Source: a virus (lineage: Duplodnaviria; Heunggongvirae; Uroviricota; Caudoviricetes). Taken from it: a stretch of 25,836 bases of DNA. Below the pieces are notes generated by a model. The model was given only the letters and a program-made list of their open reading frames with translations, had not been told where the DNA came from and did no database searches. Location: IMG/VR virus record IMGVR_UViG_2526164601_000026; one strand, given 5' to 3'. Position numbers and translations under genes: made by a program. Shown here piece after piece: positions 536-25,809 of the stretch; positions within the stretch are counted from its first letter, which is position 1; each line of letters begins with the position of its first letter.

Positions 536-841
536 AGTTATACTCCTTGTTGGGTACTAAAGACGCTTGAATATACAGCTAACATTACTTTACTAGGGAT
601 AATAATTGATTTTCTTACCGAACTATGGGTACTGAACGCTTTGGCATCTTTTATTACAGGTGGTTACTGCTGATGGCATAAGAGTATTATCAGTATTGGT
701 AGAAAAATAAAACAGAAATTTTCTGTAATACCCCATTTATCAAGACGCCTTTATATTTCTAACGTCTGTATCTGGCTAAGGGGCAGTCAGGTTTAGAACT
801 GTGCAATAGTTGCGTTTGTTCGAATCCGGCGCGGCCACTGT

Positions 842-4196: not shown

Positions 4197-4214
4197 TTTC
4201 AGTTCTCCGGATAA

Positions 4215-5423: not shown

Positions 5424-5583
5424 GACAAAGTCTCCATTTCTGGAATTTAAATCAAACGGAAAGGTTAAAAATTTATTTGCAGGCGATAAGAGCTAACCAG
5501 AGGAATTAGCCGTGCGATAAAAGGATTGTTGCAGATACGAAAGTCGTTAGAATAGCTGCGGGCGCTTGAGGCTGTATGCCGAA

Positions 5584-7366
5584 AGCGTTTTGTGGACGGT
5601 ATACAGCAGAAAGCCCCTGGAGATTTTTTTATCAATCAACCAAGGGCTCTACTGTAATGCCTAGACAACATTATAGTAGCCCGATAACCGCCGGAAGGCA
5701 ATGGAGGGGCTATGATGTGTTAACACCAAGCTGTAATGTCCCCTTTCGTAACCATTCTAAAATGTCCCCACGACAATTCTCTGGGGGAGTTTTTCTATGA
5801 TCAAAGAGACTGTTACGATGAGTCATAAGGAACTCCACCGACTTCAGATTATTCAGGAGTCAATTAATCGACATATTACTCAGGAACAAGCTGCGGCACG
5901 CATTGGCATTTCTATTCGGCAGGTTAAACGTCTGGTGCAACGGTATAGAAATGAAGGGCCTTCTGGTCTGGTTTCCCCCCGACGTGGAAAGCGTCCTAAT
6001 AATTCCTTTCTACTGATTCAGAGCAACAGTAATTTCACTCCTCAAAGGCCGTTACGCTGATTTTGGACCTACGTTTGCGTGCGAAAAATTGCGTGAGATA
6101 CACGGTTTATCTTTATCCGTTGAAACTCTCAGAAAGTGGATGATAGAAGAGGGGTTATGGCGTGAACGCCGTCGTAAAATTGCCCGTATATATCAACGCC
6201 GCATGCGACGACCATCTTACGGTGAACTGATCCAGATTGATGGCTCACCTCATGACTGGTTTGAAAATCGAGGCCCCAGATGTACACTGATCGTTTTCAT
6301 TGATGATGCCACCAGTGCGTTGATGGCGTTGCGTTTTGTGCCTGCTGAAACAACCCGGGCTTACATGGAAACCCTCCGGGGTTACCTTAATGATCATGGC
6401 GTACCGCTCGCTCTCTACTCTGATAGACACAGTATATTCAGGGTAAATAACCCAGAGCGGGAAGGTGAGCTGACCCAGTTCACTCGTGCGATAAAGACAC
6501 TGGGCATCGAGCCAATCCATGCCAACAGCCCGCAGGCAAAAGGGCGGTAGAGCGCGCCAATCAGACACTACAGGACAGGCTGGTCAAAGAAATGCGGCTT
6601 CAGAATATCAGTGATATTGAAACAGCAAATGCATGGTTGCCGACCTTTATTGAAGCCTATAACAACCGGTTCGCTACGTCGCCTCGTACTACTGATAATG
6701 CTCATCTTGATGTGCACCATTCTGAAGAGGAACTGGGTTATATCTTCAGCCTACAGGCGAAGCGCGTTCTGTCTAAAAATCTCACTTTCCAGTACAAAAG
6801 CAGTGCGTTTCAGGTACGCAGTGAGGGCCGGGGATATCGACTTAGGCATTCGGTTGTTACTGTATGCGAGAACTTTGACGGTGAAATTAACGTTCTGTAT
6901 GACGGGAAAGCGCTGGGCTGGGAAAAGTATGTTGATGGCCCGGAGCCTATACCACTGGATGATGAAAAGAGTGTCCATGAACGAGTGGATAATGCCCGTA
7001 TTGATTTACGCTCAAAATACTATGTTAAACCTAAAGCTGACCATCCCTGGCTTACGCGCCGAACGCAAAGTCATCAGCAAGTTAAGCCCCCGAAGTTACC
7101 TAAAAAGAAGCCTGATCCCGATAAAAAAGATTGAAACCAAGATCGATTCGGTTGAGTGCATATCCATTCATAGGGTAGATTCTTAAGTCGCGTTTCTGGT
7201 GTTCATTTTCGGGTGGTTTGTTACTTGTTTTACCGGGGATATGCCAGAAACGCGCTGAGTCAGTCTGGGCGGTGCGCGTAATGAGGCGTTATGGCAAATA
7301 GCCTATGCTAATGTCCGCTAAGAGCAAGAAGCGGAAGTTGGCAGTTTGTGGACTGTCCCCACAAAA
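5584..7366 (+). mobile_element. Degenerate insertion sequence (approximate boundaries)
   Basis: Encloses the frameshifted transposase. Imperfect inverted similarity between the left end (gttttgtggacgg, ~5584) and the reverse complement of the right end (ttttgtggggacag, ~7345-7366). Boundaries are uncertain and no target-site duplication was identified. Confidence 0.3.
5797..7134 (+). pseudogene. DDE (rve-type) transposase with N-terminal HTH, split into three frames by two frameshifts
   Basis: ORFs 5797-6060, 6089-6550 and 6592-7134 are consecutive pieces of one ~445-aa transposase (HTH ...IGISIRQVKRLVQRY...; integrase core ...LIQIDGS...IVFIDDATS...). Frame breaks near 6035-6060 (T run) and 6545-6552 (gggcggtag, G run). 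Family guess ISNCY/IS481-like, not verified. Confidence 0.65.
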
Positions 7367-7532
7367 GTGACTACAGAAATAGTTGCAATTCATAATTGAT
7401 CATGGGTTGTCAGTTAAACTCGTGGCGATTTAAATAGACTAATTGGGAGTGCGTCCATTACTTATATCTTGTAATGTTAACTATCAGAAATGATACAAAG
7501 ATAATATGTCTTTAAAGAAAAGGCTGATGGCG

Positions 7533-7555
7533 AAAAGTGGCCCGATGAGGGCCAC
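7533..7555 (-). terminator. Putative rho-independent terminator downstream of flxA
   Basis: Hairpin gtggccc-gatga-gggccac, followed on the minus strand by TTTTCGCC. Confidence 0.35.
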
Positions 7556-7565
7556 AATACGGCTG

Positions 7566-7901
7566 TCACTTAGACGTAAATATCAATGGTGCCAGCGGTA
7601 TTTGTATCGTCTTTTTCTCTTCTTTTTTATCAGGCTGAACTGTCGCGTCTTCATTCTTTTTCTCTGCCTGCTGCCTTAACAACTGCTCCAGTTGAGCCCA
7701 GAGGCTTTCAATTTGCTTCTGTACCAATGCAGCCATTTCTTTTTTCTGCTGTGTCGTCATCCCCTCTTCCGATGAGATTTTCCCAAGCTTTTCAGTCAGC
7801 ACCTGAATTTGTCTTGTGATTTTGGCTATTTCTGATGTTCCTTCCGGGGCGGAGTTGTTTGAAATAACGGTTGAGGTATTTCCCTGAATTGTGACAGACA
7901 T
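7566..7901 (-). CDS. flxA: FlxA-like protein (prophage gene of the flagellar regulon)
   Basis: 111-aa ORF (MSVTIQGNTSTVISNNSAPEGTSEIAKITRQ...) matching my recollection of Qin-prophage FlxA. AGGAG RBS 7 nt upstream of ATG. Sigma-28 promoter immediately upstream. Confidence 0.65.
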   Translation of the reverse strand: MSVTIQGNTSTVISNNSAPEGTSEIAKITRQIQVLTEKLGKISSEEGMTTQQKKEMAALVQKQIESLWAQLEQLLRQQAEKKNEDATVQPDKKEEKKTIQIPLAPLIFTSK

Positions 7902-7924
7902 AGATTTCTCCTTTTAAAAAAGCA

Positions 7925-7951
7925 CTATCGGCATGCACAAAAAAATCTTTA
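7925..7951 (-). promoter_or_regulatory. Sigma-28 (FliA)-type promoter for flxA
   Basis: Minus strand reads TAAAGATT-N11-GCCGATAG against consensus TAAAGTTT-N11-GCCGATAA. The -10 element ends about 24 nt upstream of the flxA ATG. Confidence 0.55.
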
Positions 7952-8397
7952 ATCGTATTTCTTGTGTCATTAATTGTTTGATGTTCAGATTGTTTTCCTC
8001 GCGGGCTGGCGCGCCTCAGAAAGTAAAGCTTGTTGACAGGGGTAAACGTTCGGCAATAATTTTCTGCCGCATGCGGGTGTTGCATAAAACGTGCTACGTT
8101 CCTTTATCGACAGGTCAGGTCACCGCTCACCCGCCGACGAGAAAGCAACACTGACATGCTAAAGCAAAAAATAGATGAATAAGTTGAGTTGTGCATATGT
8201 AGCCTGACCGTCACAAAGTATATGGTGTCTGTACCAGTAAGATGATGGCCGGACTCTTTAAAAACGAGCTGACCTGCACAATACAGGATTGGACTTAGCA
8301 ATGGCTGCTCCTGGCACAAAGCGGACAGTGATCACCGTTCTTACGACTACTTTCTGACTTCCTTCGTGACTTGCCCTAAGCATGTTGTAGTGCGATA

Positions 8398-8424
8398 CTT
8401 GTAATGACATTTGTAATTACAAGA
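8398..8424 (+). promoter_or_regulatory. relBE operator/promoter region
   Basis: gtaatgacatttgtaattacaagagg, with the palindrome ttgtaattacaa, directly upstream of the relB ATG; matches the known relO architecture. Confidence 0.45.
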
Positions 8425-8434
8425 GGTGTAAGAC

Positions 8435-8673
8435 ATGGGTAGCATTAACCTGCGTATTGACGATGAACTTAAAGCGCGTTCTTACGCCGCGCTTGAAAAA
8501 TGGGTGTAACTCCTTCTGAAGCGCTTCGTCTCATGCTCGAGTATATCGCTGACAATGAACGCTTGCCGTTCAAACAGACACTCCTGAGTGATGAAGATGC
8601 TGAACTTGTGGAGATAGTGAAAGAACGGCTTCGTAATCCTAAGCCAGTACGTGTGACGCTGGATGAACTCTGA
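8435..8673 (+). pseudogene. relB: RelB antitoxin, frameshifted as given (A5 run at 8496-8500)
   Basis: Translation MGSINLRIDDELKARSYAALEKWV then stop. The rest of RelB (GVTPSEALRLMLEYIADNERLPFKQTLLSDEDAELVEIVKERLRNPKPVRVTLDEL) continues in the +1 frame. One A appears to be missing relative to the K-12 gene as I recall it. Confidence 0.75.
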
Positions 8674-8961
8674 TGGCGTATTTTCTGGATTTTGACGAGC
8701 GGGCACTAAAGGAATGGCGAAAAGCTGGGCTCGACGGTACGTGAACAGTTGAAAAAGAAGCTGGTTGAAGTACTTGAGTCACCCCGGATTGAAGCAAACA
8801 AGCTCCGTGGTATGCCTGATTGTTACAAGATTAAGCTCCGGTCTTCAGGCTATCGCCTTGTATACCAGGTTATAGACGAGAAAGTTGTCGTTTTCGTGAT
8901 TTCTGTTGGGAAAAGAGAACGCTCGGAAGTATATAGCGAGGCGGTCAAACGCATTCTCTGA
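8673..8961 (+). pseudogene. relE: RelE mRNA-interferase toxin, frameshifted as given (A4 run at 8720-8723)
   Basis: ATG overlaps the relB stop (ATGA). MAYFLDFDERALKEWRK, then the frame is lost; the remainder (...KKKLVEVLESPRIEANKLRGMPDCYKIKLRSSGYRLVYQVIDEKVVVFVISVGKRERSEVYSEAVKRIL) is in another frame (ORF 8749-8961). Confidence 0.75.
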
Positions 8962-9032
8962 ACCAAAGCATGACATCTCTGTTTCGCACCGAAGGTGACA
9001 CTTCTGCTTTGCGTTGACAGGAGAAGCAGGCT

Positions 9033-9188
9033 ATGAAGCAGCAAAAGGCGATGTTAATCGCCCTGATCGTCATCTGTTTAACCGTCATAGTGACGGCACT
9101 GGTAACGAGGAAAGACCTCTGCGAGGTACGAATCCGAACCGGCCAGACGGAGGTCGCTGTCTTCACAGCTTACGAACCTGAGGAGTAA
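9033..9188 (+). CDS. hokD: Hok-family type I toxin (HokD/RelF-like)
   Basis: 51-aa ORF MKQQKAMLIALIVICLTVIVTALVTRKDLCEVRIRTGQTEVAVFTAYEPEE, with a single TM helix. Sits downstream of relBE as in the Qin prophage. Confidence 0.8.
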   Translation: MKQQKAMLIALIVICLTVIVTALVTRKDLCEVRIRTGQTEVAVFTAYEPEE

Positions 9189-9255
9189 GAGACCAGGCGG
9201 GGGAGAATCCCTCGCCACCTCTGATGTGTCAGGCATCCTCAACGCACCCGCACTT

Positions 9256-9282
9256 AACCCGCTTCGGCGGGTTTTGTTTTTT
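9256..9282 (+). terminator. Rho-independent terminator (3' end of hok transcript)
   Basis: aacccgc-ttcg-gcgggtt hairpin followed by TTGTTTTTT. Confidence 0.5.
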
Positions 9283-9354
9283 CCTAGCATTCTGGTTTAC
9301 AATTCGCACGCCAGCCTGAACAACTGGCACCTGCTGCGCCAGCAGAGACAACCG

Positions 9355-9633
9355 ATGGCGCACGATACCAAATTACACAATTCTGATGATTCTGCCGTCT
9401 TTGCCAGCAGGCACGGGCGGCGTTCCCGCACTTTCAAATCTGACTGGTTCCAGCATCCCCCATGCACTGAAGAACAGGCCGAGTGGCTAATTCAGTGCTA
9501 CCGCAGACACGGATACGAGATTAAGAAAGCCCTCAGCCTCGATTATCGTCACTGGATAATCTCCGTCAGGCTTCCTTACTCCGAGCGCCCACCGCGTCCG
9601 TCCCGCACATTCCAGCAACGCATCTGGAGGTAA
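9355..9633 (+). CDS. Rem-like small prophage protein
   Basis: In-frame ATG downstream of the hok terminator; MAHDTKLHNSDDSAVFASRHGRR.... The track ORF 9226-9633 would read through the terminator, so the shorter start is preferred. Position matches rem in Qin; function unknown. Confidence 0.4.
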   Translation: MAHDTKLHNSDDSAVFASRHGRRSRTFKSDWFQHPPCTEEQAEWLIQCYRRHGYEIKKALSLDYRHWIISVRLPYSERPPRPSRTFQQRIWR

Positions 9634-9634
9634 C

Positions 9635-10684
9635 GTGCGGGTATTACTTCGACCTGTTCTGGTACCGGAACTCGGGCTGGTGATCGTTAAGCCGGGCCGT
9701 GAATCCATGCCGGTATTCCACAATACCCGGGTACTGGTGGAGCCGGAACCGAAAAGCATGCGTAATCTGCCGTCCGGGGTTGTTCCTGCCGTTCACCAGC
9801 CGCTAGTGGAAGACAAAACATTGCTGCCGTTTTTCAGTAACGCACGGGTGATTCGTGCTGCTGGTGGTGCTGGTGCATTGTCTGACTGGCTGTTGCGCCA
9901 TATTAAATCCTGCCAGTGGCCACACGGCGATTATCATCACAGCGAAACCGTCATTCACCGTTATGGTACCGGCGCAATGGTGTTGTGCTGGCACTGCGAC
10001 AACCAGCTGCGTGACCAGACATCCGAATCACTCGAGCAACTTGCTCATCAAAACCTGTCAGCATGGATGATTGACGTCATCGGTCACGCAATAAGCGGTA
10101 CGCAGGAGCGTGAATTATCTCTGGCTGAATTATCCTGGTGGGCGGTCTGCAATCAGGTGGCGGACGCGCTTCCGGAGGCAGTATTACGTCGTTCTCTGGG
10201 GTTACGTGCGGAAAAAATCCGCCCCTTGTACCGCGAAAGCGACATCGTACCGGGAGAGCAGACCGCCATCAGCATACTGAAACAGCGCACAAAAAATCTT
10301 GCGCCGCTGCCTCACGCCCACCAGCAACAGAACCCACCACAGGAAAAGACGGTGGTCAGCATTGCCGTTGATCCTGAGCCTCCGGAATCTTTCATGAAAC
10401 GACCTAAACGTCGCCGCTGGGTTAACGAGAAATACACACGCTGGGTGAAGACACAGCCGTGTGCGTGTTGTGGTAAGCCAGCCGACGATCCCCATCACCT
10501 GATTGGTCATGGTCAGGGCGGAATGGGGACAAAATCTCACGATATTTTCACGCTACCGCTGTGTCGGGAGCATCACAACGAGCTTCATGCGGATCCGCTG
10601 GCGTTCGAAGAAAAGCATGGTTCTCAGGTTGATTTAATTTTTCGTTTTCTTGATCACGCCTTTGCAACTGGCGTGCTTGGGTAA
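9635..10684 (+). CDS. DUF968/YdfU-like protein with HNH-like Cys/His motif
   Basis: 349-aa ORF with C-terminal CACCGKPADDPHHLIGHG...CREHHNELH motif. Position between rem and rusA/Q as in Qin-type prophages. Confidence 0.6.
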   Translation: MRVLLRPVLVPELGLVIVKPGRESMPVFHNTRVLVEPEPKSMRNLPSGVVPAVHQPLVEDKTLLPFFSNARVIRAAGGAGALSDWLLRHIKSCQWPHGDYHHSETVIHRYGTGAMVLCWHCDNQLRDQTSESLEQLAHQNLSAWMIDVIGHAISGTQERELSLAELSWWAVCNQVADALPEAVLRRSLGLRAEKIRPLYRESDIVPGEQTAISILKQRTKNLAPLPHAHQQQNPPQEKTVVSIAVDPEPPESFMKRPKRRRWVNEKYTRWVKTQPCACCGKPADDPHHLIGHGQGGMGTKSHDIFTLPLCREHHNELHADPLAFEEKHGSQVDLIFRFLDHAFATGVLG

Positions 10685-10696
10685 AAGAGGTGACTG

Positions 10697-11053
10697 ATGC
10701 TCATAGATTTGGTTTTACCTTACCCGCCGACGGTGAACACTTACTGGCGACGCCGTGGCAGCACATATTTTATCTCGGAGGAGGGAAAGCGTTATCGCCG
10801 GGCTGTGGCGCTTATTGTTCGCCAGCAGCGGCTGAAATTAAGCCTGTCCGGAAGGCTGGCGATAAAGGTGATTGCAGAGCCACCGGATAAGCGTCGTCGC
10901 GACCTGGACAACATTCTGAAAGCACCGCTGGATGCGCTGACGCATGCGGGAGTGTTAATGGACGATGAGCAGTTTGATGAAATCAATATCGTTCGTGGTC
11001 AGCCAGTATCTGGTGGACGTCTGGGGGTGAAGATTTACCCCATAATGCATTAA
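10697..11053 (+). CDS. rusA: RusA-family Holliday junction resolvase
   Basis: 118-aa ORF containing the RusA-like core RRRDLDNILKAPLDALTHAGVLMDDEQ. AAGAGG RBS upstream. Confidence 0.75.
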   Translation: MLIDLVLPYPPTVNTYWRRRGSTYFISEEGKRYRRAVALIVRQQRLKLSLSGRLAIKVIAEPPDKRRRDLDNILKAPLDALTHAGVLMDDEQFDEINIVRGQPVSGGRLGVKIYPIMH

Positions 11054-11067
11054 GAGCAGGTCAAAAA

Positions 11068-11889
11068 ATGAAACTGGAAGATTTACCGAAATACTACTCC
11101 CCAAAATCCCCTGGCCTGACCGATGCATCGGCCTCAACGTCAAAAGATGCGCTGAGTATCACTGATGTGATGGCCGCGCAGGGCATGACACAGAATCGGG
11201 CTGAGATGGGTTTTTCTGCGTTCCTGGGGAAAATGGGCATCAGTATGAATGACAGGGCGCGGGCAACAGAATTACTGGCAGATTATGCACTCAGTCGGTG
11301 CGATCGTGTGGCGGCGTTGAGAAAACTTCCGGCAGAAATAAAACCGGTAGTGATGCGCATTATGGCTTCGTACGCTTTTGAGGATTATGCCCGCAGCGCA
11401 GCGAGTAAAAAGCAGTGCCCTTGTTGCTATGGGGAAAAATTTATTGAAAGCATAGTTTTTACAAACAAGGTCCAGTATCCGGATGGTAAGCCGCCGGTAT
11501 GGGCAAAGTGTACGAAAGGTGTGTATCCGTCTTACTGGGAAGAATGGAAAAAAGTCAGGGAGGTGGTAAAAGTTGCCTGTCCGGAGTGTGGCGGAAAGGG
11601 TGAGGTTTCCACCGCCTGTAAGGATTGCCGTGGGCGTGGTGTCGCCATTCATCGTGAAGAGTCGGTAAAACGTGGTATGCCTGTTATCAGAGACTGCCAG
11701 CGTTGTGGTGGTCGTGGCTATGAAAGACTACCATCAACGGAGGCATTTAATGCTATATGCGAGGTGACAAACCAGATAACACGCGCGTCATGGGAAAAAA
11801 CAGTTAAGAAATTTTATGATGCGCTGGTGACCCGGTTTGATATTGAAGAAGCATGGGCTGAGCGGCAGTTAAAAAAGGTAACTAGGTAA
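11068..11889 (+). CDS. Late-gene antiterminator Q-like protein
   Basis: 273-aa ORF with Cys-rich zinc-binding motifs (CPECGGKGEVSTACKDCRGRG; CQRCGGRG). Located immediately upstream of the PR'/tR'-like region and the tRNAs. Confidence 0.6.
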   Translation: MKLEDLPKYYSPKSPGLTDASASTSKDALSITDVMAAQGMTQNRAEMGFSAFLGKMGISMNDRARATELLADYALSRCDRVAALRKLPAEIKPVVMRIMASYAFEDYARSAASKKQCPCCYGEKFIESIVFTNKVQYPDGKPPVWAKCTKGVYPSYWEEWKKVREVVKVACPECGGKGEVSTACKDCRGRGVAIHREESVKRGMPVIRDCQRCGGRGYERLPSTEAFNAICEVTNQITRASWEKTVKKFYDALVTRFDIEEAWAERQLKKVTR

Positions 11890-11894
11890 CAAGG

Positions 11895-11922
11895 TTGATT
11901 TTTCCGGAATCTGTGGTAAATT
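11895..11922 (+). promoter_or_regulatory. Candidate late promoter PR' (sigma-70 type)
   Basis: TTGATT-16 nt-TAAATT just downstream of Q stop and about 50 nt upstream of a terminator. Confidence 0.35.
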
Positions 11923-11969
11923 CGTCATAACGATGGGCGTTTTATGCCTGACGTTAGAAGAGTTTCTAC

Positions 11970-11995
11970 AACCCGCCGCTGAGCGGGTTTTTTAT
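11970..11995 (+). terminator. tR'-like rho-independent terminator
   Basis: aacccgc-cgctga-gcgggtt hairpin followed by TTTTTTATT. Confidence 0.5.
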
Positions 11996-12032
11996 TGCGA
12001 AATTAATTACGGACCGTTATTATTCTGCTCCC

Positions 12033-12108
12033 GGCCCTTTAGCTCAGTGGTGAGAGCGAGCGACTCATAATCGCCAGGTCGCTGGTTCAAATCCAGCAAG
12101 GGCCACCA
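12033..12108 (+). tRNA. ileZ: tRNA with CAU anticodon, ileX/ileZ-like (tRNA-Ile2)
   Basis: 76-nt cloverleaf: acceptor GGCCCTT/AAGGGCC, D-arm GCTCAGTGGTGAGAGC, anticodon loop CTCATAA, T-arm GCTGGTTCAAATCCAGC, encoded CCA. Closer to ileX than to elongator Met. Confidence 0.85.
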
Positions 12109-12209
12109 TCACAAACCGCCATTAGCTTATCAGGAAGAGCAGACGACACGATAACAGGGTTGTTGGTGCGGGGGGCGGGTCCCCGATGGCGATCCATTAT
12201 CGGTATTCA

Positions 12210-12286
12210 GCGTTGTTAGCTCAGCCGGACAGAGCAATTGCCTTCTAAGCAATCGGTCACTGGTTCGAATCCAGTACAGCGCGCCA
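12210..12286 (+). tRNA. argO: tRNA-Arg (UCU anticodon)
   Basis: 77-nt cloverleaf: acceptor GCGTTGT/ACAGCGC, anticodon stem-loop ATTGC-CTTCTAA-GCAAT, T-arm ACTGGTTCGAATCCAGT, encoded CCA. Confidence 0.85.
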
Positions 12287-12396
12287 TATTCATTCTTCCA
12301 GATTCCTTCCGGCAGAGCCTTATACTGAAATATACCTGGCTCAGGATATTGTTGAAAATATTATATGTTTGTCAAAAATAAAAGTTCTGTTAAGTA

Positions 12397-12750
12397 TTGA
12401 TTGAATATTTGTTATACGGTCTAATGGTTTTTTCAGCATTAAATATTTATCATTCATATGGTGTGGGTAGAGTGAATATTGATGAGGCGTCGGGGTGTTT
12501 CATCCTTAGGCAGCGTATTGATATAGTCAATGCAGCACGAGCAAAGGCCTTCAGCCGTTTGACAGTTTTGTTCTGTACTCCTGATCGTCTTTCGGGAAGA
12601 GACGTTATTATTCTGAATAGTGATGCTATACAGAGGGTTTGCGATGAGTTCATGGTTGCTAATTCAGAATTATTTGCTCTTGTTCAGGAGTACAACAGAA
12701 TAGCCAGGACCTGTGGTATGGATGAACTTCGGATTACTCATCTGGGGTAG
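12397..12750 (+). CDS. Hypothetical protein (cargo gene downstream of phage tRNAs)
   Basis: 117-aa ORF starting at TTG; the first ATG is at 12424. No clear RBS and no family recognised. AT-rich context. Confidence 0.3.
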   Translation: MIEYLLYGLMVFSALNIYHSYGVGRVNIDEASGCFILRQRIDIVNAARAKAFSRLTVLFCTPDRLSGRDVIILNSDAIQRVCDEFMVANSELFALVQEYNRIARTCGMDELRITHLG

Positions 12751-13141
12751 ATACATATCTGGATTATCACCTGTTACGGTAAAAAGTGATTGCTTACTGT
12801 TTTTGTGAATGGCATTGCAGCAGCCGGATAATGTCAGTGCTGGCTGACGGTGTGCTGGTGGCGGGTGTGGTGGTTGTTGCTTTCCCGTTGCTGAAAAAGA
12901 AAACGCCAGACTGTTAGCCGGGTATCAGTTAGCGGGAGAAATTTTTAAATACTTCACAATTCAGGCGGTTGACTGTTGTCTGGTTTGCGGGGAGTTTGTT
13001 AAAAGAAACTGGCATGGTGAATCCCCCTGTGCGGAGGGGCAATCAGCGAGTAGGTATATGGGATAATCGCGGATTCAGGTGCTGGTACTGAATTCACCGG
13101 GAGGCACCCGGCACCATGCAATGGCACATAGCGCCACTCTC

Positions 13142-13178
13142 CAGCCCCTCTCCGGAGGGGCTGTTTATATTGATTTTG
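13142..13178 (+). terminator. Rho-independent terminator-like hairpin
   Basis: cagcccctc-tccg-gaggggctg GC-rich stem followed by TTTATATTGATTTTG. Confidence 0.4.
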
Positions 13179-13197
13179 TCAGATGTGAGTAAACTCC

Positions 13198-13533
13198 TTA
13201 TGGATTTTGTTGTTTTAGCCCATAAGGACATATTTGCAGAGTGCAACGGTTATTAAAGCATTCATTCAATACGTTATCTGTATTTGTAGGGCATTCCTGG
13301 CTGTTTTTGATTAAATTCCAGAATGTTTTATTGAATGGTACTATGTTGTAAATGGTTACAGGTAGCACTTTGTTATTGAGCATGATACCTGTGTGAGTCA
13401 GTGTAAATATACTTTCAGGAGGTAAGAAAGCATCCGATTGATACCAGATTATTAATTTTATTTTACTCCATATGACTGAAAAAGATATTCCGCATGATGG
13501 CTGGATAACTGTATCAATCACAATCCACTTCAT
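13198..13533 (-). CDS. Hypothetical Cys-containing protein (AT-rich cargo gene)
   Basis: 111-aa ORF with AAGGA RBS 7 nt upstream of ATG. Strongly AT-rich; no recognisable family. Confidence 0.45.
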
Positions 13534-13777
13534 TTACTTTCCTTGTTTATGCCTTGCTGGTGATGTTCTGAAAAGTATAAATGATATTTTTGAATTAAAC
13601 CATAGAGCAGAATTATTTTTCTGATGTTGTTTATTGTTTATTTAAATACAGGGTGGTTTATATCTCGTCTTGTAGTTTATCCATGCATATCTGCTTGATA
13701 ATCAGGTTTTTATTTAAGGTATGGTTTTGTGTTTTTTCTGTATTACATGTCAGGTATTTTAAAGAATTATTTTTCAG

Positions 13778-15685
13778 ATGGTGGAAAGAACCATGGCATT
13801 TAAACACTATGATGTTGTCAGGGCGGCGTCGCCATCAGATCTTGCGGAAAAGCTGACACATAAACTGAAAGAGGGCTGGCAGCCGTTTGGTAGTCCGGTG
13901 GCCATAACCCCTTATACTCTGATGCAGGCGATTACAGCAGAAGGTGATGTGGTGGTCAGTGGTGCAACTGAGCCGGATTGGTACTACGTCATCGTACTGG
14001 CCGGGCAGTCCAATGCCATGGCTTACGGTGAAGGGCTTCCGCTGCCGGATTCATACGATGCTCCGGATCCGCGCATTAAACAGCTGGCGCGCCGCAGTAC
14101 AGTGACGCCGGGTGGGGCTGCCTGCAGATATAACGATATTATTCCGGCCGACCACTGCCTGCATGATGTGCAGGATATGAGTACGCTGAATCATCCGAAG
14201 GCAGACCTGAGCAAAGGGCAGTACGGCTGTGTCGGCCAGGGCTTACATATTGCCAAACGTCTGCTGCCGTATATCCCCAAAAATGCCGGGATTCTTCTTG
14301 TTCCCTGCTCCCGTGGTGGTTCGGCATTCACCCAGGGCGCGGAGGGGACATTCAGTGCGGACACGGGGGCCAGCCAGGATTCGGCGCGCTGGGGTGTGGG
14401 TAAACCGTTATATCAGGACCTGATTGCGCGCACTAAAGCTGCATTACAGAAGAACCCGAAAAATGTGTTGCTGGCGGTGTGCTGGATGCAGGGAGAGTTT
14501 GACATGAGCGCCGCCACCTACGCACAGCAACCTGCGCTGTTTACAGCCATGCTGAAGCAGTTTCGTGCTGACCTCACTGTGTTTAACGCGCAGTGTCATG
14601 GTGGCAGTGCTGTAAATGTGCCGTGGATTTGTGGTGACACGACGTATTACTGGAAAAATACATACGCTACCCAGTACGACACCGTGTACGGCGGGTATAA
14701 AAACAGGGAGAGTGAGGGCGTTTATTTTGTGCCCTTCATGACAGACGGTAACGGCGTCAATACCGCCACTAACGCGCCGGCAGAAGATCCGGATATTCCG
14801 GCATCAGGATATTACGGTGCGGCATCGAGAACGAATGGAAACCAGGTATCATCAAACCGCCCGACACATTTCAGTTCATGGGCGCGCAGGAGCATTATTC
14901 CGGATCGTCTGGCAACCGCTATTCTGAACGCAGCCGGGCGCACCTCCGCCTTCATCAGTGGTAAGGCACCGGAAATCAAACCCTCGCCCGGCGGCAACAC
15001 GCCATCGGGTCCGTCTGCAGATACGTCCGTTCGCACAATCTCCCTGCTGCCGGCAGCCGGAGAGGCTGCTGCGCAGGGCTGGAGCATTAAGGATGGCGGA
15101 ATTCAGTTGTCAGATGGTGTATTTAAGATCACCAAGCAGAGCAATAAAACCTGGTCCCTGACGCATCCGGTGGATGACGCAATTACCCTGCTGACACAGG
15201 GCGGCAGACTGACCTGTAAGTTCCGCCTGTCAGGCGCACTGACCAACAATCAGTTCGGGCTGGGGATTTATCTGTATACGGATGCTCCCGTTCCTGATGG
15301 TGTGGCGATGACGGGTACCGGTAATCCGTTCCTGATGTCGTACTTCACTCAGACCACTGACGGCAGAGTGAATCTGATGCATCACAGGAAAGCCGGAAAC
15401 ACGAAGCTGGGGGAGTTCGGCGATTACGGTAACGACTGGCAGACGCTGGAGCTGGTGTTCACCGCCGGCAGTGCCACGGTTACTCCGAAACTGAATGGAG
15501 TGGCTGGCCCGGCATTCCAGGTTATAAAAGACAGTCTGACACTGGGACTGAATGCGCTGACGCTGACGGATGTTACAAAAAATGCAGCGTATGGCGTTGA
15601 GATAGAAAGTCTGGTGCTGGAGATAAATGCACCGGCAGCATATAAAAAAGAGCCAGCGACTGACCTGAAAGAAGACGCTGGCTAA
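13778..15685 (+). CDS. nanS-p: NanS-p-like prophage sialate O-acetylesterase (N-terminal DUF1737-like plus SASA esterase domain)
   Basis: 635-aa ORF. N-terminus MAFKHYDVVRAASPSDLAEKLTHKLKEGWQPFGSPVA; esterase motif region VIVLAGQSNAMAY. Occupies the position downstream of Q/tRNAs typical of Stx-phage nanS-p. Alternative start at 13793. Confidence 0.7.
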   Translation: MVERTMAFKHYDVVRAASPSDLAEKLTHKLKEGWQPFGSPVAITPYTLMQAITAEGDVVVSGATEPDWYYVIVLAGQSNAMAYGEGLPLPDSYDAPDPRIKQLARRSTVTPGGAACRYNDIIPADHCLHDVQDMSTLNHPKADLSKGQYGCVGQGLHIAKRLLPYIPKNAGILLVPCSRGGSAFTQGAEGTFSADTGASQDSARWGVGKPLYQDLIARTKAALQKNPKNVLLAVCWMQGEFDMSAATYAQQPALFTAMLKQFRADLTVFNAQCHGGSAVNVPWICGDTTYYWKNTYATQYDTVYGGYKNRESEGVYFVPFMTDGNGVNTATNAPAEDPDIPASGYYGAASRTNGNQVSSNRPTHFSSWARRSIIPDRLATAILNAAGRTSAFISGKAPEIKPSPGGNTPSGPSADTSVRTISLLPAAGEAAAQGWSIKDGGIQLSDGVFKITKQSNKTWSLTHPVDDAITLLTQGGRLTCKFRLSGALTNNQFGLGIYLYTDAPVPDGVAMTGTGNPFLMSYFTQTTDGRVNLMHHRKAGNTKLGEFGDYGNDWQTLELVFTAGSATVTPKLNGVAGPAFQVIKDSLTLGLNALTLTDVTKNAAYGVEIESLVLEINAPAAYKKEPATDLKEDAG

Positions 15686-15857
15686 AAGGCCTTATATGTT
15701 TGTAGATGATACTTATATTTGGCAGTACATTTTCTGACAGACAGTGACGGGTGTTGTCAAGATATTGTGTCATTTATAACCTGAATCAGGGGGGCCGGAA
15801 TGTTATCTGGCATTTTTAGCAGAGCCTGAATGCCATAATCACGGCTCCCGGAGTTGG

Positions 15858-15892
15858 CCGTCAGTGGGTGACACTGGCGGTTTTTTTGTTTT
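15858..15892 (+). terminator. Rho-independent terminator upstream of lysis cassette
   Basis: ccgtcagtg-ggtga-cactggcgg hairpin followed by TTTTTTTGTTTTT. Confidence 0.5.
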
Positions 15893-15937
15893 TCTTTACT
15901 TTCATTTTCTGTCGGCGGTGACGGAGACATACATCAG

Positions 15938-16144
15938 ATGGAAAAAATCACAACAGGTGTGTCATACACCACGTCAGCGGTGGGGACGGGATACTGGTTA
16001 CTGCAGCTGCTGGACAAAGTCTCTCCGTCCCAGTGGGTGGCAATAGGTGTGCTGGGAAGTCTGCTGTTTGGCCTGCTGACGTATCTGACTAACCTGTATT
16101 TCAAAATCAGAGAGGACCGTCGTAAGGTGGCGCGGGGAGAGTAG
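15938..16144 (+). CDS. S: Class II holin / pinholin (S21-like)
   Basis: 68-aa [71 protein letters not shown] with two TM helices. GGAG RBS 11 nt upstream. Confidence 0.85.
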
Positions 16145-16399
16145 TCGATGAATAAACAATACGAACTGGTTGTAAAATGAATATTTCTAACTGAAAAAAC
16201 GTTCCATGAGGTAAGAAAAGGTCACAGGCAATCAATAACAGGACGTGATGAAAGACCCTTGCATTTGTGCGCTTTCTCTTTAGATAGCAGCAGATACTGA
16301 AAATCTGAGTTGTCGGGGAGTCAGGGATACAGCTGTGCAAGAGTTGGTCATTGTGATTCCATTGAAATCCTGTATGCCATGAAGGGCAGGATTTTATGG

Positions 16400-16714
16400 C
16401 TACCTGAGCTTTGGTGATAGTAAGTTGAAAATTCGCATTTTTTGCTGACATGCGTAACGAGAATCCCATAAGCAGGGAGGACTTAATTCTTCATTAACCC
16501 ATGCGTTGATATTATGTTTCAGCCGTTGAAGCATCAGCGGTGTTAATGTTGTGGTAATAATATCCAGCGTTTTATGTGAGATCTTACCGTAAGGGTCTGC
16601 AAGAATGCTGCTTGTTGCTTCGTTATTATCTGCCATCAGAAGAAGTAACTCTGATTTAACGTTTTCTGTCATTAGTTGTAAAAATCTTCTGCGCAAACTT
16701 TCTTTACTGTTCAT
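16400..16714 (-). CDS. Hypothetical protein encoded antisense between holin and endolysin (possibly YdfR-like)
   Basis: 104-aa ORF in the 690-bp gap between S and R on the opposite strand. Weak RBS. Qin has a ~103-aa gene (ydfR) between its holin and endolysin, but homology is not verified. Confidence 0.3.
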   Translation of the reverse strand: MNSKESLRRRFLQLMTENVKSELLLLMADNNEATSSILADPYGKISHKTLDIITTTLTPLMLQRLKHNINAWVNEELSPPCLWDSRYACQQKMRIFNLLSPKLR

Positions 16715-16831
16715 TTATATGGCTTCATTTGTTGTAATCTGCTGCGTCTCAAGGGATATGTTTATGAGAGCGACCATGAGTGTTGGATTATATACCTAAC
16801 ATATCAAGGGATTAGAAATCGATAAATCCCC

Positions 16832-17365
16832 ATGCACGAAAAAATAAAATACGGCCTGTCGGCTGCCGTTCTGGCGCTGATTGGTGCAGGTGCTTCTGCG
16901 CCTGAAATCCTCGACCAGTTTCTGGATGAAAAGGAAGGTAACCACACCACGGCATACCGTGATGGTGCGGGGATCTGGACCATCTGCCGTGGTGCCATTC
17001 TGGTGGATGGTAAGCCTGTTATTCCTGGCATGAAGCTGTCAAAGGAAAAATGCGACCGGGTTAATGCCATCGAACGTGACAAGGCGCTGGCATGGGTGGA
17101 GAAAAACATCCGGGTGCCGCTGACCGAACCCCAGAAAGCGGGGATCGCGTCATTCTGTCCGTACAACATTGGCCCCGGTAAGTGCTTCCCGTCGACGTTT
17201 TATAAACGAATTAATGCAGGCGATCGAAAAGGTGCCTGTGAGGCGATTCGCTGGTGGATTAAGGACGGTGGCAGAGACTGCCGTATCCGTTCAAATAATT
17301 GCTACGGTCAGGTCTCACGGCGTGACCAGGAGAGCGCGCTGGCGTGCTGGGACATCGACAGATAG
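16832..17365 (+). CDS. R: SAR endolysin (phage lysozyme, GH24, R21-like)
   Basis: 177-aa ORF. N-terminal signal-anchor-release segment YGLSAAVLALIGAGASAPEIL, then lysozyme core (EGNHTTAYRDGAGIWTICRG...). Confidence 0.85.
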   Translation: MHEKIKYGLSAAVLALIGAGASAPEILDQFLDEKEGNHTTAYRDGAGIWTICRGAILVDGKPVIPGMKLSKEKCDRVNAIERDKALAWVEKNIRVPLTEPQKAGIASFCPYNIGPGKCFPSTFYKRINAGDRKGACEAIRWWIKDGGRDCRIRSNNCYGQVSRRDQESALACWDIDR

Positions 17366-17454
17366 CAGAATATTTTCCTGAAAAATGACGTTGGCCAACG
17401 CGGGTGGATAACACGAAATCCTGAAAACTGGTAAAACCTAAGTGAATAAAAGTA

Positions 17455-17495
17455 AAAACCCCGTTTGTTGGCAGCAAGCGGGGTTTTGTGTTTTC
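17455..17495 (+). terminator. Terminator-like extended hairpin between endolysin and Rz
   Basis: aaaaccccg...cggggtttt stem with inner ttg-gcag-caa helix, followed by GTGTTTTCT. Confidence 0.35.
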
Positions 17496-17700
17496 TGACC
17501 TTGAGCAAGGCAAGGGAGAAATTATGGGTAGGGAGGTACTTTCCCTGTGAGGAAGTATAAAAGATTCTTTCTGAGGTTGTCCATTATGAAAGGCATTGAA
17601 GTGGAGACGCCAGCCAGGCTGGATTTAACAAGAGCGGCAGCTTTTGCCATTCGTATTGTGGCCATTGCTGTTCTGGTCTGGGCAATCCGTTGGTGGTGAT

Positions 17701-18168
17701 ATGAACCGTGTTCTGTGCGTGGTTATCATTGTCCTGCTGGTGGCCTGTGGTGCGCTTAGTCTGGGGCTGAATCATTACCGTGATCACGCCATCATCTACA
17801 AAGAGCAGCGCGATAAAAAAGCCAGTGAGCTGGAGCTGGCGAACGCGACAATTACTGATATGCAGATACGCCAGCGTGATGTCGCTGCACTTGATGCCAG
17901 ATACTCGAGGGAATTAGCCGATGCGAGAGCTGAAAATGAAACTCTGCGTGCTGATGTTGCCGCTGGTCGTAAGCGCCTGCGGATCAACGCCACCTGCTCC
18001 GGTACCGTGCGTGAAGCCACCGGCACCTCCGGCGTGGATAATGCAACCGGCCCCCGACTGGCAGACACCGCTGAACGGGATTATTTCATCCTCAGAGAAC
18101 GGCTGATGGCAATGCAGAAGCAACTGGAAGGAGCACAGGAATATATCCGTACCCAGTGTATACCGTGA
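17701..18168 (+). CDS. Rz: Rz i-spanin
   Basis: Start MNRVLCVVIIVLLVACGALSLGLNHY (N-terminal TM) chosen over the upstream track start at 17644; coiled-coil-rich periplasmic domain. Embedded Rz1 in the +1 frame. Confidence 0.75.
   Translation: MNRVLCVVIIVLLVACGALSLGLNHYRDHAIIYKEQRDKKASELELANATITDMQIRQRDVAALDARYSRELADARAENETLRADVAAGRKRLRINATCSGTVREATGTSGVDNATGPRLADTAERDYFILRERLMAMQKQLEGAQEYIRTQCIP
17936..18106 (+). CDS. Rz1: Rz1 o-spanin lipoprotein (embedded in Rz)
   Basis: MKLCVLMLPLVVSAC lipobox followed by a proline-rich mature peptide; entirely within Rz in another frame. Confidence 0.65.
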   Translation: MKLCVLMLPLVVSACGSTPPAPVPCVKPPAPPAWIMQPAPDWQTPLNGIISSSENG

Positions 18169-18633
18169 TATTTTGTTATGAAGGTGTTACTGGTAACGTT
18201 AAGGTAATTTAACAAAGAGTCAGTTCCGGACTTTATAGTGTGCTCAGTTCATGGCCAAAAACGATTTCTGTGATAAATATTTTGAATATTATTTACAGGT
18301 AAATGGAGTGGGGCACATGGATAGAAATATTACAATAGAGAATGAAGTATATGCCCGTATTGTATGGGCAGAGAAGGCAAAAACACGGTAATTCCGTGTG
18401 TTGCCATGATACCTGATTGGCAGAATAGTTGTTTGGTTTTGAGTATATAGTCAGCGTTTTTTGTTCAGTAATTGCTCCCTCAAAAAATAATAAAACAAGG
18501 TGATTATTTTTGTTTATTATTTAGTTTTTTTTGTGTGTTGTTTTATTGTTTTTGCGTGGTTTGTTTTTTATTGTTATTTCATTAAGGGAAGGTAAATTCA
18601 GGATGGCAGTCTGTAGATAATCGGAGGTCACTT

Positions 18634-18948
18634 ATGCTACATGATCACGTGGCAGAATGTCTGGAGAAAAAAGGACTGTACCGGAGAGCAGCTGAACGAT
18701 GGGCAAAAGTGATGGTACAGCTAAGTGATGACCAGAAAAGAAAAGTGGCGGCACAGAAACGAGCAGAGTGTTTGCGTAAGGCGCGCCGGACTCCGGTTTC
18801 ACCGGTGAACCTGACCGAAATAAAACAAGCGGTCAACAGACTACATTCTGAGTTGGGAATGGGATTTGAAGAGCGGCGGGTATTCCGACGATATAAAGGG
18901 ACAGGAGAACAGAATACGTCCGGAAACGCGCGGTCAAAAAAATGCTAA
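18634..18948 (+). CDS. PerC/Pch-family transcriptional regulator-like protein
   Basis: 104-aa ORF MLHDHVAECLEKKGLYRRAAERWAKVM..., resembling the PerC-family N-terminal motif. Preceded by a ~200-bp AT/T-tract-rich region (18420-18620). Family call from memory. Confidence 0.55.
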   Translation: MLHDHVAECLEKKGLYRRAAERWAKVMVQLSDDQKRKVAAQKRAECLRKARRTPVSPVNLTEIKQAVNRLHSELGMGFEERRVFRRYKGTGEQNTSGNARSKKC

Positions 18949-18984
18949 AAAATATCTGAGAGAGTTATTGCCTGTTACCATAAG

Positions 18985-19011
18985 AAAAAGCGACTTTAGT
19001 GGTCGCTTTTT
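18985..19011. terminator. Bidirectional rho-independent terminator
   Basis: AAAAA-gcgac-tttagtg-gtcgc-TTTTT, between the convergent PerC-like gene (+) and the RHH gene (-). Confidence 0.5.
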
Positions 19012-19029
19012 GTGTCATATATAAGTCGT

Positions 19030-19254
19030 TTAAGTAAACCTGTCTGAACAGGTGCTCTGGTCGTGTTTGTCTTTGTTGGGTACAAATTGAGAATATTTTT
19101 CATTAATTAATCTTCTTCTGCAGGCTTCAATAACCCACGCTGAAAAATTACCTGAACCTTTCAGGTCAAGAGCGATGTTAATTTGTTCAATTATCTGGTT
19201 TGGAAATCGGATGTTGCGGGTTGTTGTTCTGCGGGTTCTGTTCTTTGATGACAT
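19030..19254 (-). CDS. Ribbon-helix-helix (Arc/CopG-like) DNA-binding protein
   Basis: 74-aa ORF with TRNIRFPNQIIEQINIALDLKGSGNFSAWVIEACRRRL, a typical RHH beta-strand/helix pattern. Confidence 0.5.
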   Translation of the reverse strand: MSSKNRTRRTTTRNIRFPNQIIEQINIALDLKGSGNFSAWVIEACRRRLINEKYSQFVPNKDKHDQSTCSDRFT

Positions 19255-19450
19255 AATGTTGCCCCGTATTCAGTGTTGCTGATTTGTATTATCTGAAGTT
19301 GCTTTTACGCTAATTTGATGCAGATCAATTAATACGATACCTGCGTAATAATTGATTATTTCTCGTGGTTTGATGGCGTACACACATGTCGTGATAAACC
19401 TCATGTAGATGATAATTATTATCATTTTCGTGGGTCCTTTCCGGCGATCC

Positions 19451-19473
19451 GACAGGTTACGGGGCGGCGACCT
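19451..19473. other. cos: Phage cos site (cosN cohesive-end sequence GGGCGGCGACCT at 19462-19473), lambda-type
   Basis: ...cgtgggtcctttccggcgatccgacaggttacg|GGGCGGCGACCTCGCGGGTTTTCGCTATTTATGA matches the joined lambda right and left ends as I recall them, about 215 nt upstream of Nu1. Confidence 0.8.
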
Positions 19474-19688
19474 CGCGGGTTTTCGCTATTTATGAGATTT
19501 TTTGAGGGGGAGTTGTTGTTTAATTGTTTGGTATATCTAATTGATAAGTAAGGTGAAAATAAAATAAATACAACAACCTTACGATGTGTTTTGATGTCGT
19601 CAATGCGAAAAATGTCAATGATATCAAATGGTTTTGTAAAAACACATGGTTGTTGTATCGCTTTTTATCGATGGCTTATGGAGAGGAG

Positions 19689-20195
19689 ATGGCCTTTTTA
19701 TTGAATAAAAGTGATATGGCCTCCTCCATCGGTATATCTGTTCAGGCATTTGATAAATGGGGCGTTCCTCCTGTTGAGCGTCGGGGGAGGGAAGTTTTTT
19801 ATGACGTTAAAACTGTACTGGAGATAGATCGCGAGCGGCGACAACACAATCAGAGAATACCTGATGACGAGGGCGATCTGGAGGAAAGGCTGCTTCGGGC
19901 CAGAGCTGAACTGACAGAAGAACAGGCCGTAGCTCAAAAACTTAAAAATCAGGTAACCGAAGGTAAGCTTATTGACACCGGATTCTGTATTTTTGCCCTC
20001 AGTAAGCTGGCAATGGTGTTATCCAGTACGCTTGATTCCATCCCTTTATCCATGCAGCGACAGTTTCCTGATTTAACACCGCGCCATCTTGACCATCTGA
20101 AAACCCTTATTGCTAAGGGGGCAAATCAGTGTGCGCGGGCAGGGGATAAATTACCGGATTTACTTGATGAATATATCAGAGCAACAACTGAATAA
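19689..20195 (+). CDS. nu1: Terminase small subunit (lambda Nu1-like)
   Basis: Aligns with lambda Nu1 (ours DTGFCIFALSKLAMVLSSTLDSIPLSMQRQFPDLTPRHLDHLK versus lambda ETAFCTFVLSRIAGEIASILDGLPLSVQRRFPELENRHVDFLK). GGAG RBS. Alternative start at 19671. 3' end overlaps terA by 29 nt, as in lambda. Confidence 0.8.
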   Translation: MAFLLNKSDMASSIGISVQAFDKWGVPPVERRGREVFYDVKTVLEIDRERRQHNQRIPDDEGDLEERLLRARAELTEEQAVAQKLKNQVTEGKLIDTGFCIFALSKLAMVLSSTLDSIPLSMQRQFPDLTPRHLDHLKTLIAKGANQCARAGDKLPDLLDEYIRATTE

Positions 20196-22094: not shown

Positions 22095-22284
22095 ACTGCA
22101 GGCGCTGCGTCAGGCGCGCCTTGATTTATTAACCGGTAAACGGGTGGTGTCTGTCCAGAAAGATGGACGAAGAATTGAATATACGGCGGCCTCTCTGGAT
22201 GATCTTAACCGGGCGATCAATGATGCGGAGTCAGTGCTGGGGACAACAAGCCGCCGCCGTCGTCCGCTGGGAGTGAGGTTATGA
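22078..22284 (+). CDS. W: Head-tail joining protein (lambda gpW-like)
   Basis: 68 aa, ...LLTGKRVVSVQKDGRRIEYTAASLDDL... versus lambda W ...[27 protein letters not shown].... Confidence 0.75.
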   Translation: MVTVAELQALRQARLDLLTGKRVVSVQKDGRRIEYTAASLDDLNRAINDAESVLGTTSRRRRPLGVRL

Positions 22285-25368: not shown

Positions 25369-25404
25369 AGCCAGTGCTGACCATCAACAGGAGGTTTTTA
25401 CAAT

Positions 25405-25752
25405 ATGGTGACGAAAACTATCACTGAACAGCGTGCGGAAGTACGTATTTTTGCCGGTAATGATCCGGCTCATACCGCCACAGGCAGCAGCGGGATTTCC
25501 TCGGCAACACCGGCACTGACGCCCCTGATGCTGGATGAGGCCACCGGGAAACTGGTGGTCTGGGACGGACAGAAAGCCGGTAGTGCGGTTGGCATACTGG
25601 TACTGCCGCTTGAAGGCACAGAGACGGCGCTGACCTATTACAAGTCGGGGACCTTTGCGACGGAGGCAATCCGCTGGCCTGAAAGTGTGGATGAACACAA
25701 AAAGGCCAACGCCTTTGCCGGCAGTGCCCTGAGTCACGCGGCGCTGCCGTAA
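25405..25752 (+). CDS. D: Head decoration protein (lambda gpD-like)
   Basis: 115 aa, NDPAHTATGSSGISSATPALTPLMLDEATGKLVVWDG versus lambda D [37 protein letters not shown]. GGAGG RBS. Confidence 0.85.
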   Translation: MVTKTITEQRAEVRIFAGNDPAHTATGSSGISSATPALTPLMLDEATGKLVVWDGQKAGSAVGILVLPLEGTETALTYYKSGTFATEAIRWPESVDEHKKANAFAGSALSHAALP

Positions 25753-25809
25753 CACGTTATCAGGCCACCGCGGTGGCCTGACTGATTTCTGAATGAAAGG
25801 AACTGATTT

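Follow-up and report, generated by a model that had tools for sequence, protein, structure and literature searches.

The DNA considered here, called the window below, is a stretch of 25,836 nucleotides (nt) from a virus of the Caudoviricetes (IMG/VR virus record IMGVR_UViG_2526164601_000026), and the element in question is its cargo segment at positions 12287–13777, which lies between a pair of phage tRNA genes and a nanS-p-type esterase gene. An earlier note had described this segment as an AT-rich insert with two convergent genes of unknown function in the position where Shiga toxin (Stx)-converting lambdoid phages carry stxAB. The two open reading frames (ORFs) concerned, 12397–12750 on the plus strand and 13198–13533 on the minus strand, are present, and the other features lie at or near the places given to them. 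The segment and its main gene are read as follows; aa stands for amino acids, RACE for rapid amplification of cDNA ends, sRNA for small RNA and PGAP for the Prokaryotic Genome Annotation Pipeline.

13198..13533, minus strand: iraL (CFT073 c1429, formerly ycgW), encoding a 111-aa RssB anti-adaptor (CFT073 match, NCBIfam, PDB)
13534..13610, minus strand: 5' untranslated region and sigma-70 promoter of iraL (published 5' RACE, alignment to CFT073)
12424..12750, plus strand: small conserved gene of phrog_2873, 108 aa from ATG 12424 or 92 aa from GTG 12472
12786..12917, plus strand: DUF3927 small hydrophobic peptide, 43 aa, GTG start at 12786 (Pfam PF13064, PGAP)
12983..13172, plus strand: prophage sRNA STnc100 including its intrinsic terminator (Rfam RF02076)

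Judged by its sequence, the convergent 111-aa gene is iraL, of the IraM/IraL/RssC family of anti-adaptors. Its product is identical to the CFT073 protein C_RS06710 at 109 of 111 aa (98%), and a 2025 paper and its supplement equate C_RS06710 with c1429 and with iraL. The coding sequence (CDS) shares 98.8% nucleotide identity with that of CFT073 across 336/336 nt, and the two substitutions from the window protein to the CFT073 protein, I64V and N110S, are both conservative. The protein scores 161.8 bits on the NCBIfam IraM model NF007393, for which the cutoff is 121 (E 5.4e-48, residues 1–110 of 111), and residues 1–78 align end to end with chain A of PDB 8twd, the crystallised IraM fragment (E 7e-32); the N-terminal domain of IraL is predicted to be a PmrD-like beta-barrel as in the IraM–RssB crystal structure. 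The published definition of iraL (PMC4045071) asks for at least 95% identity over 100% of the CDS without overlap with iraM, and for at least 96% identity in the promoter; the window copy falls within it for both CDS and promoter. The description of two genes of unknown function is therefore superseded for this gene, which is published and experimentally characterised, and holds for the plus-strand ORF only. Of the profile and structure searches that the earlier note had proposed for both proteins, those with the 111-aa protein identified it, while those with the product of the small ORF returned no function.

The same NCBIfam model also matches IraM of Escherichia coli K-12 (b1160, beside prophage e14), a full-length homologue to which IraL is 63% identical over its full length, with the four C-terminal cysteines kept. 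At the DNA level, default blastn gave no alignment of the window iraL to K-12 iraM; in the K-12 comparison, similarity is limited to the coding region and the upstream regions are unalignable, and for this reason the paralogue IraL of CFT073 was considered. Since the upstream regions of iraM and the window iraL cannot be aligned, their regulation differs, and a PhoP-type regulation in common with K-12 iraM was rejected on the same ground. K-12 IraM is an RssB anti-adaptor induced by Mg2+ starvation and PhoP, and its structure with RssB has been solved (PDB 8twd, PMC10844676). It has been reported that IraL contacts RssB's N-terminal domain only and is active in log phase, while IraM makes contact with both domains and is active under Mg2+ starvation (PMC4045071). 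The PGAP labels at the window locus are 'anti-adapter protein IraM' and 'DUF3927 family protein'; iraL is usually annotated as 'IraM', which blurs two differently regulated paralogues.

The likeness to CFT073, a uropathogenic E. coli, extends beyond the gene itself. Window positions 11991–14019 are 97.3% identical to the CFT073 potB prophage, in which the order is Q, tRNAs, DUF3927, the IraM-family gene, a DUF1737 remnant and then the holin. The iraL locus of CFT073 as described by Hryckowian et al. (2014, mBio, PMC4045071), on the potB prophage or genomic island, has the same neighbours as in the window, including the small ORF and STnc100. The two loci differ upstream, where CFT073 has an IS200 element and three tRNAs to the two of the window, and in nanS-p, which is truncated in CFT073 and intact in the window. 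The segment is very probably a moron cassette with iraL as its main gene, belonging to a lambdoid prophage of the CFT073 potB type and placed in the stxAB slot. The locus is the already described iraL cassette, in a copy near-identical to that of CFT073; the cargo contains no new kind of element and, apart from the small plus-strand gene, is ordinary.

The slot is framed by the following features, all on the plus strand.

11068..11889, plus strand: late antiterminator Q, 273 aa, with a DnaJ-type zinc-finger region (Pfam PF03589 Antiterm, E 6.3e-55)
within 11895..11997, plus strand: putative PR' late promoter (TTGATT at 11895–11900; TGgTAAATT ending at 11922)
11970–11989, plus strand: terminator-like hairpin with a T-run in the position of tR' (terminator scan)
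12033..12108, plus strand: phage tRNA with anticodon CAT (ARAGORN: Met; PGAP on the identical gene: tRNA-Ile, lysidine type)
12210..12286, plus strand: phage tRNA-Arg (TCT) (tRNA calls by ARAGORN/PGAP)
13793..15685, plus strand: nanS-p-type SASA carbohydrate esterase with DUF1737, SASA and DUF6645 (Pfam; PGAP start)

On the left the slot is bounded by Q, whose counterpart in a relative, 2013C-4991 (99.5% identical), is labelled 'antitermination protein' by PGAP. The putative PR' was read from the sequence with a score of 8/12, under the threshold of the promoter scan, and is assigned by its position after Q. The right frame is the nanS-p-type esterase, whose start is more likely ATG 13793, in line with PGAP, and which is followed by the holin and lysozyme (lysis genes). 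From window position 13793 onward, the esterase and holin flank is 96–97% identical to Stx1a phages, and in phage H-19B Q is followed by stx1A and stx1B, after which come about 500 bp and then the matching sequence, which extends to the S holin. The cargo position is the slot of stxAB in Stx-converting lambdoid phages. Compared with Stx phages of the H-19B and 933W type, the frame of Q, PR'/tR', tRNAs, cargo, nanS-p and holin/lysis genes is common to both, but the window cargo is without stx, and its main gene, on the strand opposite, has a promoter of its own and is not part of a toxin operon driven by the late promoter. Neither stxA nor stxB was found in 12287–13777, where every ORF and element is assigned otherwise, and the PGAP annotation of an identical genome shows no toxin gene at the cargo locus; the absence of stx from the cargo position is thereby confirmed. 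As for the CAT-anticodon tRNA, it is by the PGAP call of the lysidine-modified ileZ-like type that is usual in Stx-type phages.

The composition of the segment differs from that of its surroundings. The guanine-plus-cytosine (GC) fraction of 12287–13777 is 0.390, which ranks third lowest among 487 equal-sized windows; the whole window has 0.495, Q has 0.491 and nanS-p has 0.550. The low GC is unevenly distributed: it is 0.30 in the spacer after the tRNAs, 0.34 in iraL and 0.29 upstream of iraL, while the middle of the cargo (12786–13172) is not AT-rich, with 0.51 in DUF3927 and 0.55 in STnc100. Together with the flank match to H-19B and the Stx1a phages, these values bear out the view of an AT-rich, separately acquired moron cassette in the slot between Q/tRNAs and nanS-p.

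The small plus-strand gene matches phrog_2873 (E 3.8e-70) and has weak links to phrog_4827. It had been read as a 117-aa protein with a TTG start or a start at ATG 12424; the gene is real, but its length is about 92–108 aa. The conserved core starts at 12475 (NIDE...), just after GTG 12472, which is preceded by the Shine-Dalgarno (SD)-like stretch GGTGTGGG, and no strong SD sequence precedes ATG 12424. Because both the conserved core and the SD-like stretch fit GTG 12472, the protein is probably 92 aa long, and possibly 108 aa. A second clade exists at 56–60% identity; the homologues as a whole are 91–95 aa long at 32–63% identity, the distant relatives, likewise of 91–95 aa, being at 32–44%. 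Between the two clades, the ratio of non-synonymous to synonymous substitution rates (dN/dS) is 0.26 at a dS of 1.18, and codon differences number 43 at third positions against 25 at first and 23 at second positions. Many residues are invariant in the closer homologues, and six are so in the distant set: R22, V31, P36, N63, Y73 and N74.

The AlphaFold2 model of the small protein, built from an alignment of eight sequences, has a predicted local distance difference test score (pLDDT) of 90 and consists of two long helices (2–33 and 49–80) joined by a short beta-hairpin, forming a coiled-coil hairpin. Its sequence shows neither an evident signal peptide nor an evident transmembrane segment and is modestly hydrophobic, so the protein is probably cytoplasmic. 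It has no match in Pfam, NCBIfam or PADLOC. Single-sequence and profile searches against the PDB returned noise only, the best hits among the searches being RHIM (E 0.09) and a chain of the NtrC family (E 1.5); Foldseek searches of the model against the PDB and BFVD gave only generic helical hairpins with E of at least 0.1, namely segments of EmrA, prefoldin beta, HR1 and BAR, which are regarded as uninformative. In public sources the protein is named 'hypothetical protein' only, and the CFT073 temperature-shift table contains no locus tag for it.

Homologues of the small ORF keep to the same kind of place. A single related-locus scan with the small protein gave one locus, in Citrobacter braakii (38% identity), where the homologue occupies the same slot, with phage tRNAs on one side and holin/endolysin genes on the other, and has a TerB-like gene beside it. 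Similarly, the divergent E. coli clade lies upstream of a DUF1737 gene, beside AraC-like and TolA-like cargo and then STnc100. By these loci, the family of the small ORF is one that belongs to the moron slot between tRNAs and lysis genes.

The two elements between the convergent genes belong to catalogued families. The DUF3927 ORF matches PF13064 with 95.6 bits (cutoff 25, E 1.7e-27) and also phrog_1470, 'TciB-like' (E 7.8e-13); the peptide has a grand average of hydropathy (GRAVY) of 0.95 and one predicted membrane-spanning stretch, is WP_000562553.1 in PGAP, and is identical in CFT073. A 28-aa hydrophobic peptide had been proposed at 12831–12917; that region is coding, but it is the C-terminal part of the 43-aa DUF3927 protein. 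The GC-rich terminator hairpin noted at 13142–13178 is also present and turned out to be the 3' end of the known sRNA STnc100, whose terminator comprises a stem at 13142–13163 and a T-run (terminator scan). The covariance match to STnc100 reaches 132.4 bits against a gathering score of 47 and covers model positions 1–206 of 206. In the promoter scan of the locus, no convincing promoter of its own was found for STnc100; the scan gave 7 sites against 5.1 ± 2.4 expected, and since this count is near expectation, no extra promoters are claimed.

It has been reported that 11 copies of STnc100 are transcribed in EDL933, one of them validated by Northern blot (PMC5331693). In Stx2 phages a copy lies 75 nt downstream of stx2, and pairing of STnc100 with stxB is a prediction only. 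STnc100 is related to PasD, and both are prophage sRNAs of pathogenic E. coli and Salmonella. The window STnc100 matches the copies of Stx2a and Stx2c phages at about 79–88% identity in the phage search, and it shares with STnc100/PasD of Stx phages and of prophages of enterohaemorrhagic E. coli (EHEC) a late-region site near Q and esterase genes. In 2013C-4991 and CFT073, PGAP also places a truncated 'hypothetical protein' pseudogene antisense to STnc100, corresponding to a 42-aa ORF at 12999–13127 on the minus strand; it is probably an annotation artefact over the non-coding RNA.

The spread of the cassette was followed in 5,426 complete E. coli genomes and 50,697 phage records. The whole cargo of 1,491 bases occurs at 100% identity in nine of these genomes, and at least 80% of the cassette in 863, so that the gene pair does recur at the same site in other prophages, a recurrence the earlier note had proposed to check. 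Taken singly, iraL is found in 1,441 genomes (about 27%) and the small ORF in 1,184, the latter in only one phage record. In mEp460_ev081, the small ORF, DUF3927 and STnc100 are followed by a TolA-like gene where iraL would be; in vB_EcoS-640R1 and three related phage records, DUF3927, STnc100 and iraL are present without the small ORF. Because the genes assort independently among phages, the two convergent genes are not an obligate pair, and the cassette is a mosaic of separable modules. An alternative cargo in the same slot, showing the mosaicism of the slot, was also seen in a contig of GCA_045757245.1 (L003 1–6508): its left part holds tRNAs, a TolA-like gene, a first copy of STnc100 and an AraC-family regulator, and its right part an IS3-family insertion abutting the small ORF of the divergent clade, a second copy of STnc100 and DUF1737/nanS-p.

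The promoter of iraL can be placed by correspondence with CFT073. The published 5' RACE sequence ACATCACCAGCAAGGCATAAACAAGGAAACCA matches the minus strand of the window by alignment bar 2 nt, and the 130 nt upstream of iraL are 97.7% identical to CFT073. The corresponding start site is 13566, giving a leader of 33 nt, with a -10 element TATACT at 13579–13574 and an SD sequence AAGGA upstream of ATG 13533. The earlier view that the cargo is driven by the Q-dependent late promoter does not hold for iraL, which runs counter to the late operon from a mapped sigma-70 promoter of its own and is therefore not driven by PR'/Q.

The working of the cassette may be pictured as that of four separable modules: iraL, STnc100, the DUF3927 peptide and the phrog_2873 gene. 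The identity, order and conservation of these modules are seen in the comparisons above, while the biochemistry of IraL and the transcription of STnc100 are taken from the literature. It has been reported that CFT073 IraL binds RssB's N-terminal domain and stabilises RpoS in log phase (PMC4045071), that iraL is raised in a fur mutant and its mRNA is raised after a shift to 37 °C, and that the paralogue IraM blocks the sigma-S-binding face of RssB in the IraM–RssB structure (PMC10844676). In the lysogen, transcription of the window iraL would start at the sigma-70 promoter of the gene and run against the direction of the late operon, and IraL, by homology with the CFT073 protein, would bind the N-terminal receiver domain of the adaptor RssB. 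RssB would thus be stopped from delivering sigma-S (RpoS) to ClpXP, and with RssB blocked RpoS would accumulate already in exponential phase, raising the general stress response of the lysogen. The phrog_2873 gene is oriented like the late genes and is most likely expressed as part of their transcript. When the prophage is induced, polymerase modified by Q would be expected to continue past the terminator of STnc100 and to transcribe iraL in the antisense direction.

Several points weigh against this account. A mechanism is established for only one of the four modules, iraL, and the activity of the window copy is a matter of homology: window IraL should act as CFT073 IraL because the gene is intact and retains the -10 element, the start site and the core of the SD sequence. 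Relative to the CFT073 promoter and leader, 1 nt is missing from the -35/-10 spacer, G is replaced by A at -1 and CC by GT between the SD sequence and the ATG, and these differences could change iraL expression. In addition, iraL has been reported to be less frequent in EHEC and Shiga toxin-producing E. coli (STEC) than in commensals (PMC4045071); even so, the closest full cassette matches include strains resembling STEC and enteropathogenic E. coli (EPEC), e.g., DEC9B. The deviations in the spacer, at -1 and beside the SD sequence, along with the GC of 0.29 upstream of iraL, may also be taken to mean that iraL is a silent passenger in the window, with a promoter weakened or repressed as AT-rich foreign DNA and with no contribution to RpoS. 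GC as low as this is typical of H-NS-bound DNA, and the host may also have other anti-adaptors. Such silence is nevertheless rather unlikely, as the coding sequence is intact with only the two conservative substitutions, the core signals named above are retained, and identical copies are kept in many genomes.

The plus-strand ORF at 12397–12750 might be doubted as a gene altogether and taken for a chance ORF in AT-rich DNA, since PGAP annotates nothing there in identical genomes and leaves it out in all genomes listed, RAST called an antisense ORF in its place in mEp460_ev081, ATG 12424 has no strong SD sequence, and no Pfam or NCBIfam family matches. A chance ORF would, however, hardly show a dN/dS of 0.26 at a dS of 1.18 against the clade of 56–60% identity with an excess of third-position differences, nor homologues of 91–95 aa down to 32–44% identity, one of them in the same slot of Citrobacter braakii. 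The residues invariant in the closer set, the six kept across the distant set, the pLDDT of 90 from only eight sequences, the phrog_2873 match (E 4e-70) and the SD-like GGTGTGGG ahead of GTG 12472 speak in the same direction, and the chance explanation is very improbable. It is harder still to believe that the two convergent genes form a functional pair, whether a toxin–antitoxin, an abortive-infection or another defence module. They are adjacent and AT-rich, sit in a moron slot known for toxins and defence genes and co-occur in 863 genomes; but none of the three proteins has a PADLOC match (E ≤ 0.01), the 111-aa product, being IraL, has a defined and different function, and two further elements, DUF3927 and STnc100, stand between the genes. 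The small ORF moreover occurs without iraL in mEp460_ev081 and iraL without the ORF in vB_EcoS-640R1 and the three others, and the divergent and Citrobacter homologues of the ORF adjoin other cargo (AraC-like, TolA-like, TerB-like). The PADLOC and family searches found no toxin or defence signature in the cargo, so the proposal of a novel toxin, effector or defence cargo is wrong for iraL and unsupported for the rest, in which STnc100 and DUF3927 are known families.

With the segment read as the iraL cassette, its value as a discovery is small: the iraL locus with its main gene and promoter, and the effect on RpoS, have been in print since 2014, and both the sRNA and the peptide belong to catalogued families. 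It does mean that in a large share of E. coli the Shiga toxin slot of Stx phages holds an anti-adaptor that stabilises RpoS, and that a conserved small gene beside iraL, under purifying selection, has been missed by the RefSeq pipeline; as PGAP makes no call over the small ORF in at least 1,184 complete E. coli genomes, it is systematically absent from RefSeq proteomes. Because the cassette is modular, each module can be studied alone. It is conceivable, though distinctly unlikely, that the small gene is the founding example of a slot-specific family of coiled-coil proteins of about 92 aa in enterobacterial lambdoid prophages with a host-directed function, and the chance that it proves noteworthy for such a function is correspondingly slim. 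Possible roles are those of a late-expressed inhibitor or adaptor mimic acting on a host regulator, or of a partner of the neighbouring STnc100, which comes after it repeatedly; the evidence holds no positive hint of its function.

As regards the rest of the window, its two parts resemble different replicons. Positions 1–9023 are 99.8% identical to the IncI1-type plasmid pDEC9B-1, with trbC/B/A, hok/sok and an ISEsa1 remnant followed by ydfW-flxA-ydfV-relBE-hok, and positions 9019–25836 are a lambdoid prophage of chromosomal type. Chromosomal Qin-like prophages hold 5690–12500 contiguously, and therefore only about 1–5690 is plasmid-specific. The whole plasmid–prophage join was found in no complete replicon of the collections searched, and the window is either a real IncI1–prophage cointegrate or the product of an assembly in which the two parts were joined across a repeat of about 3.3 kb that they share. 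At 5560–5717 on the plus strand lies a full-length Rfam match of 133.7 bits to the antitoxin RNA sok (RF01794), within a plasmid-type hok/sok module, and a second hok-family gene lies near 9032–9184, at the switch point between plasmid and prophage.

The closest chromosomal relative is the prophage of 2013C-4991, which is nearly identical. Just 3' of the lysis genes, a PerC-family transcriptional regulator is annotated in this relative (99.6% identical); mapped from L001 19501–19815, its position in the window is about 18635–18949 on the plus strand. The early region of the 2013C-4991 prophage contains a SMODS nucleotidyltransferase and SLATT pair, resembling a cyclic-oligonucleotide-based anti-phage signalling system (CBASS), and an IS421 remnant follows hokD; both are absent from the window, the extra segments of 2013C-4991 being at L001 5397–6837 and 8632–9743.

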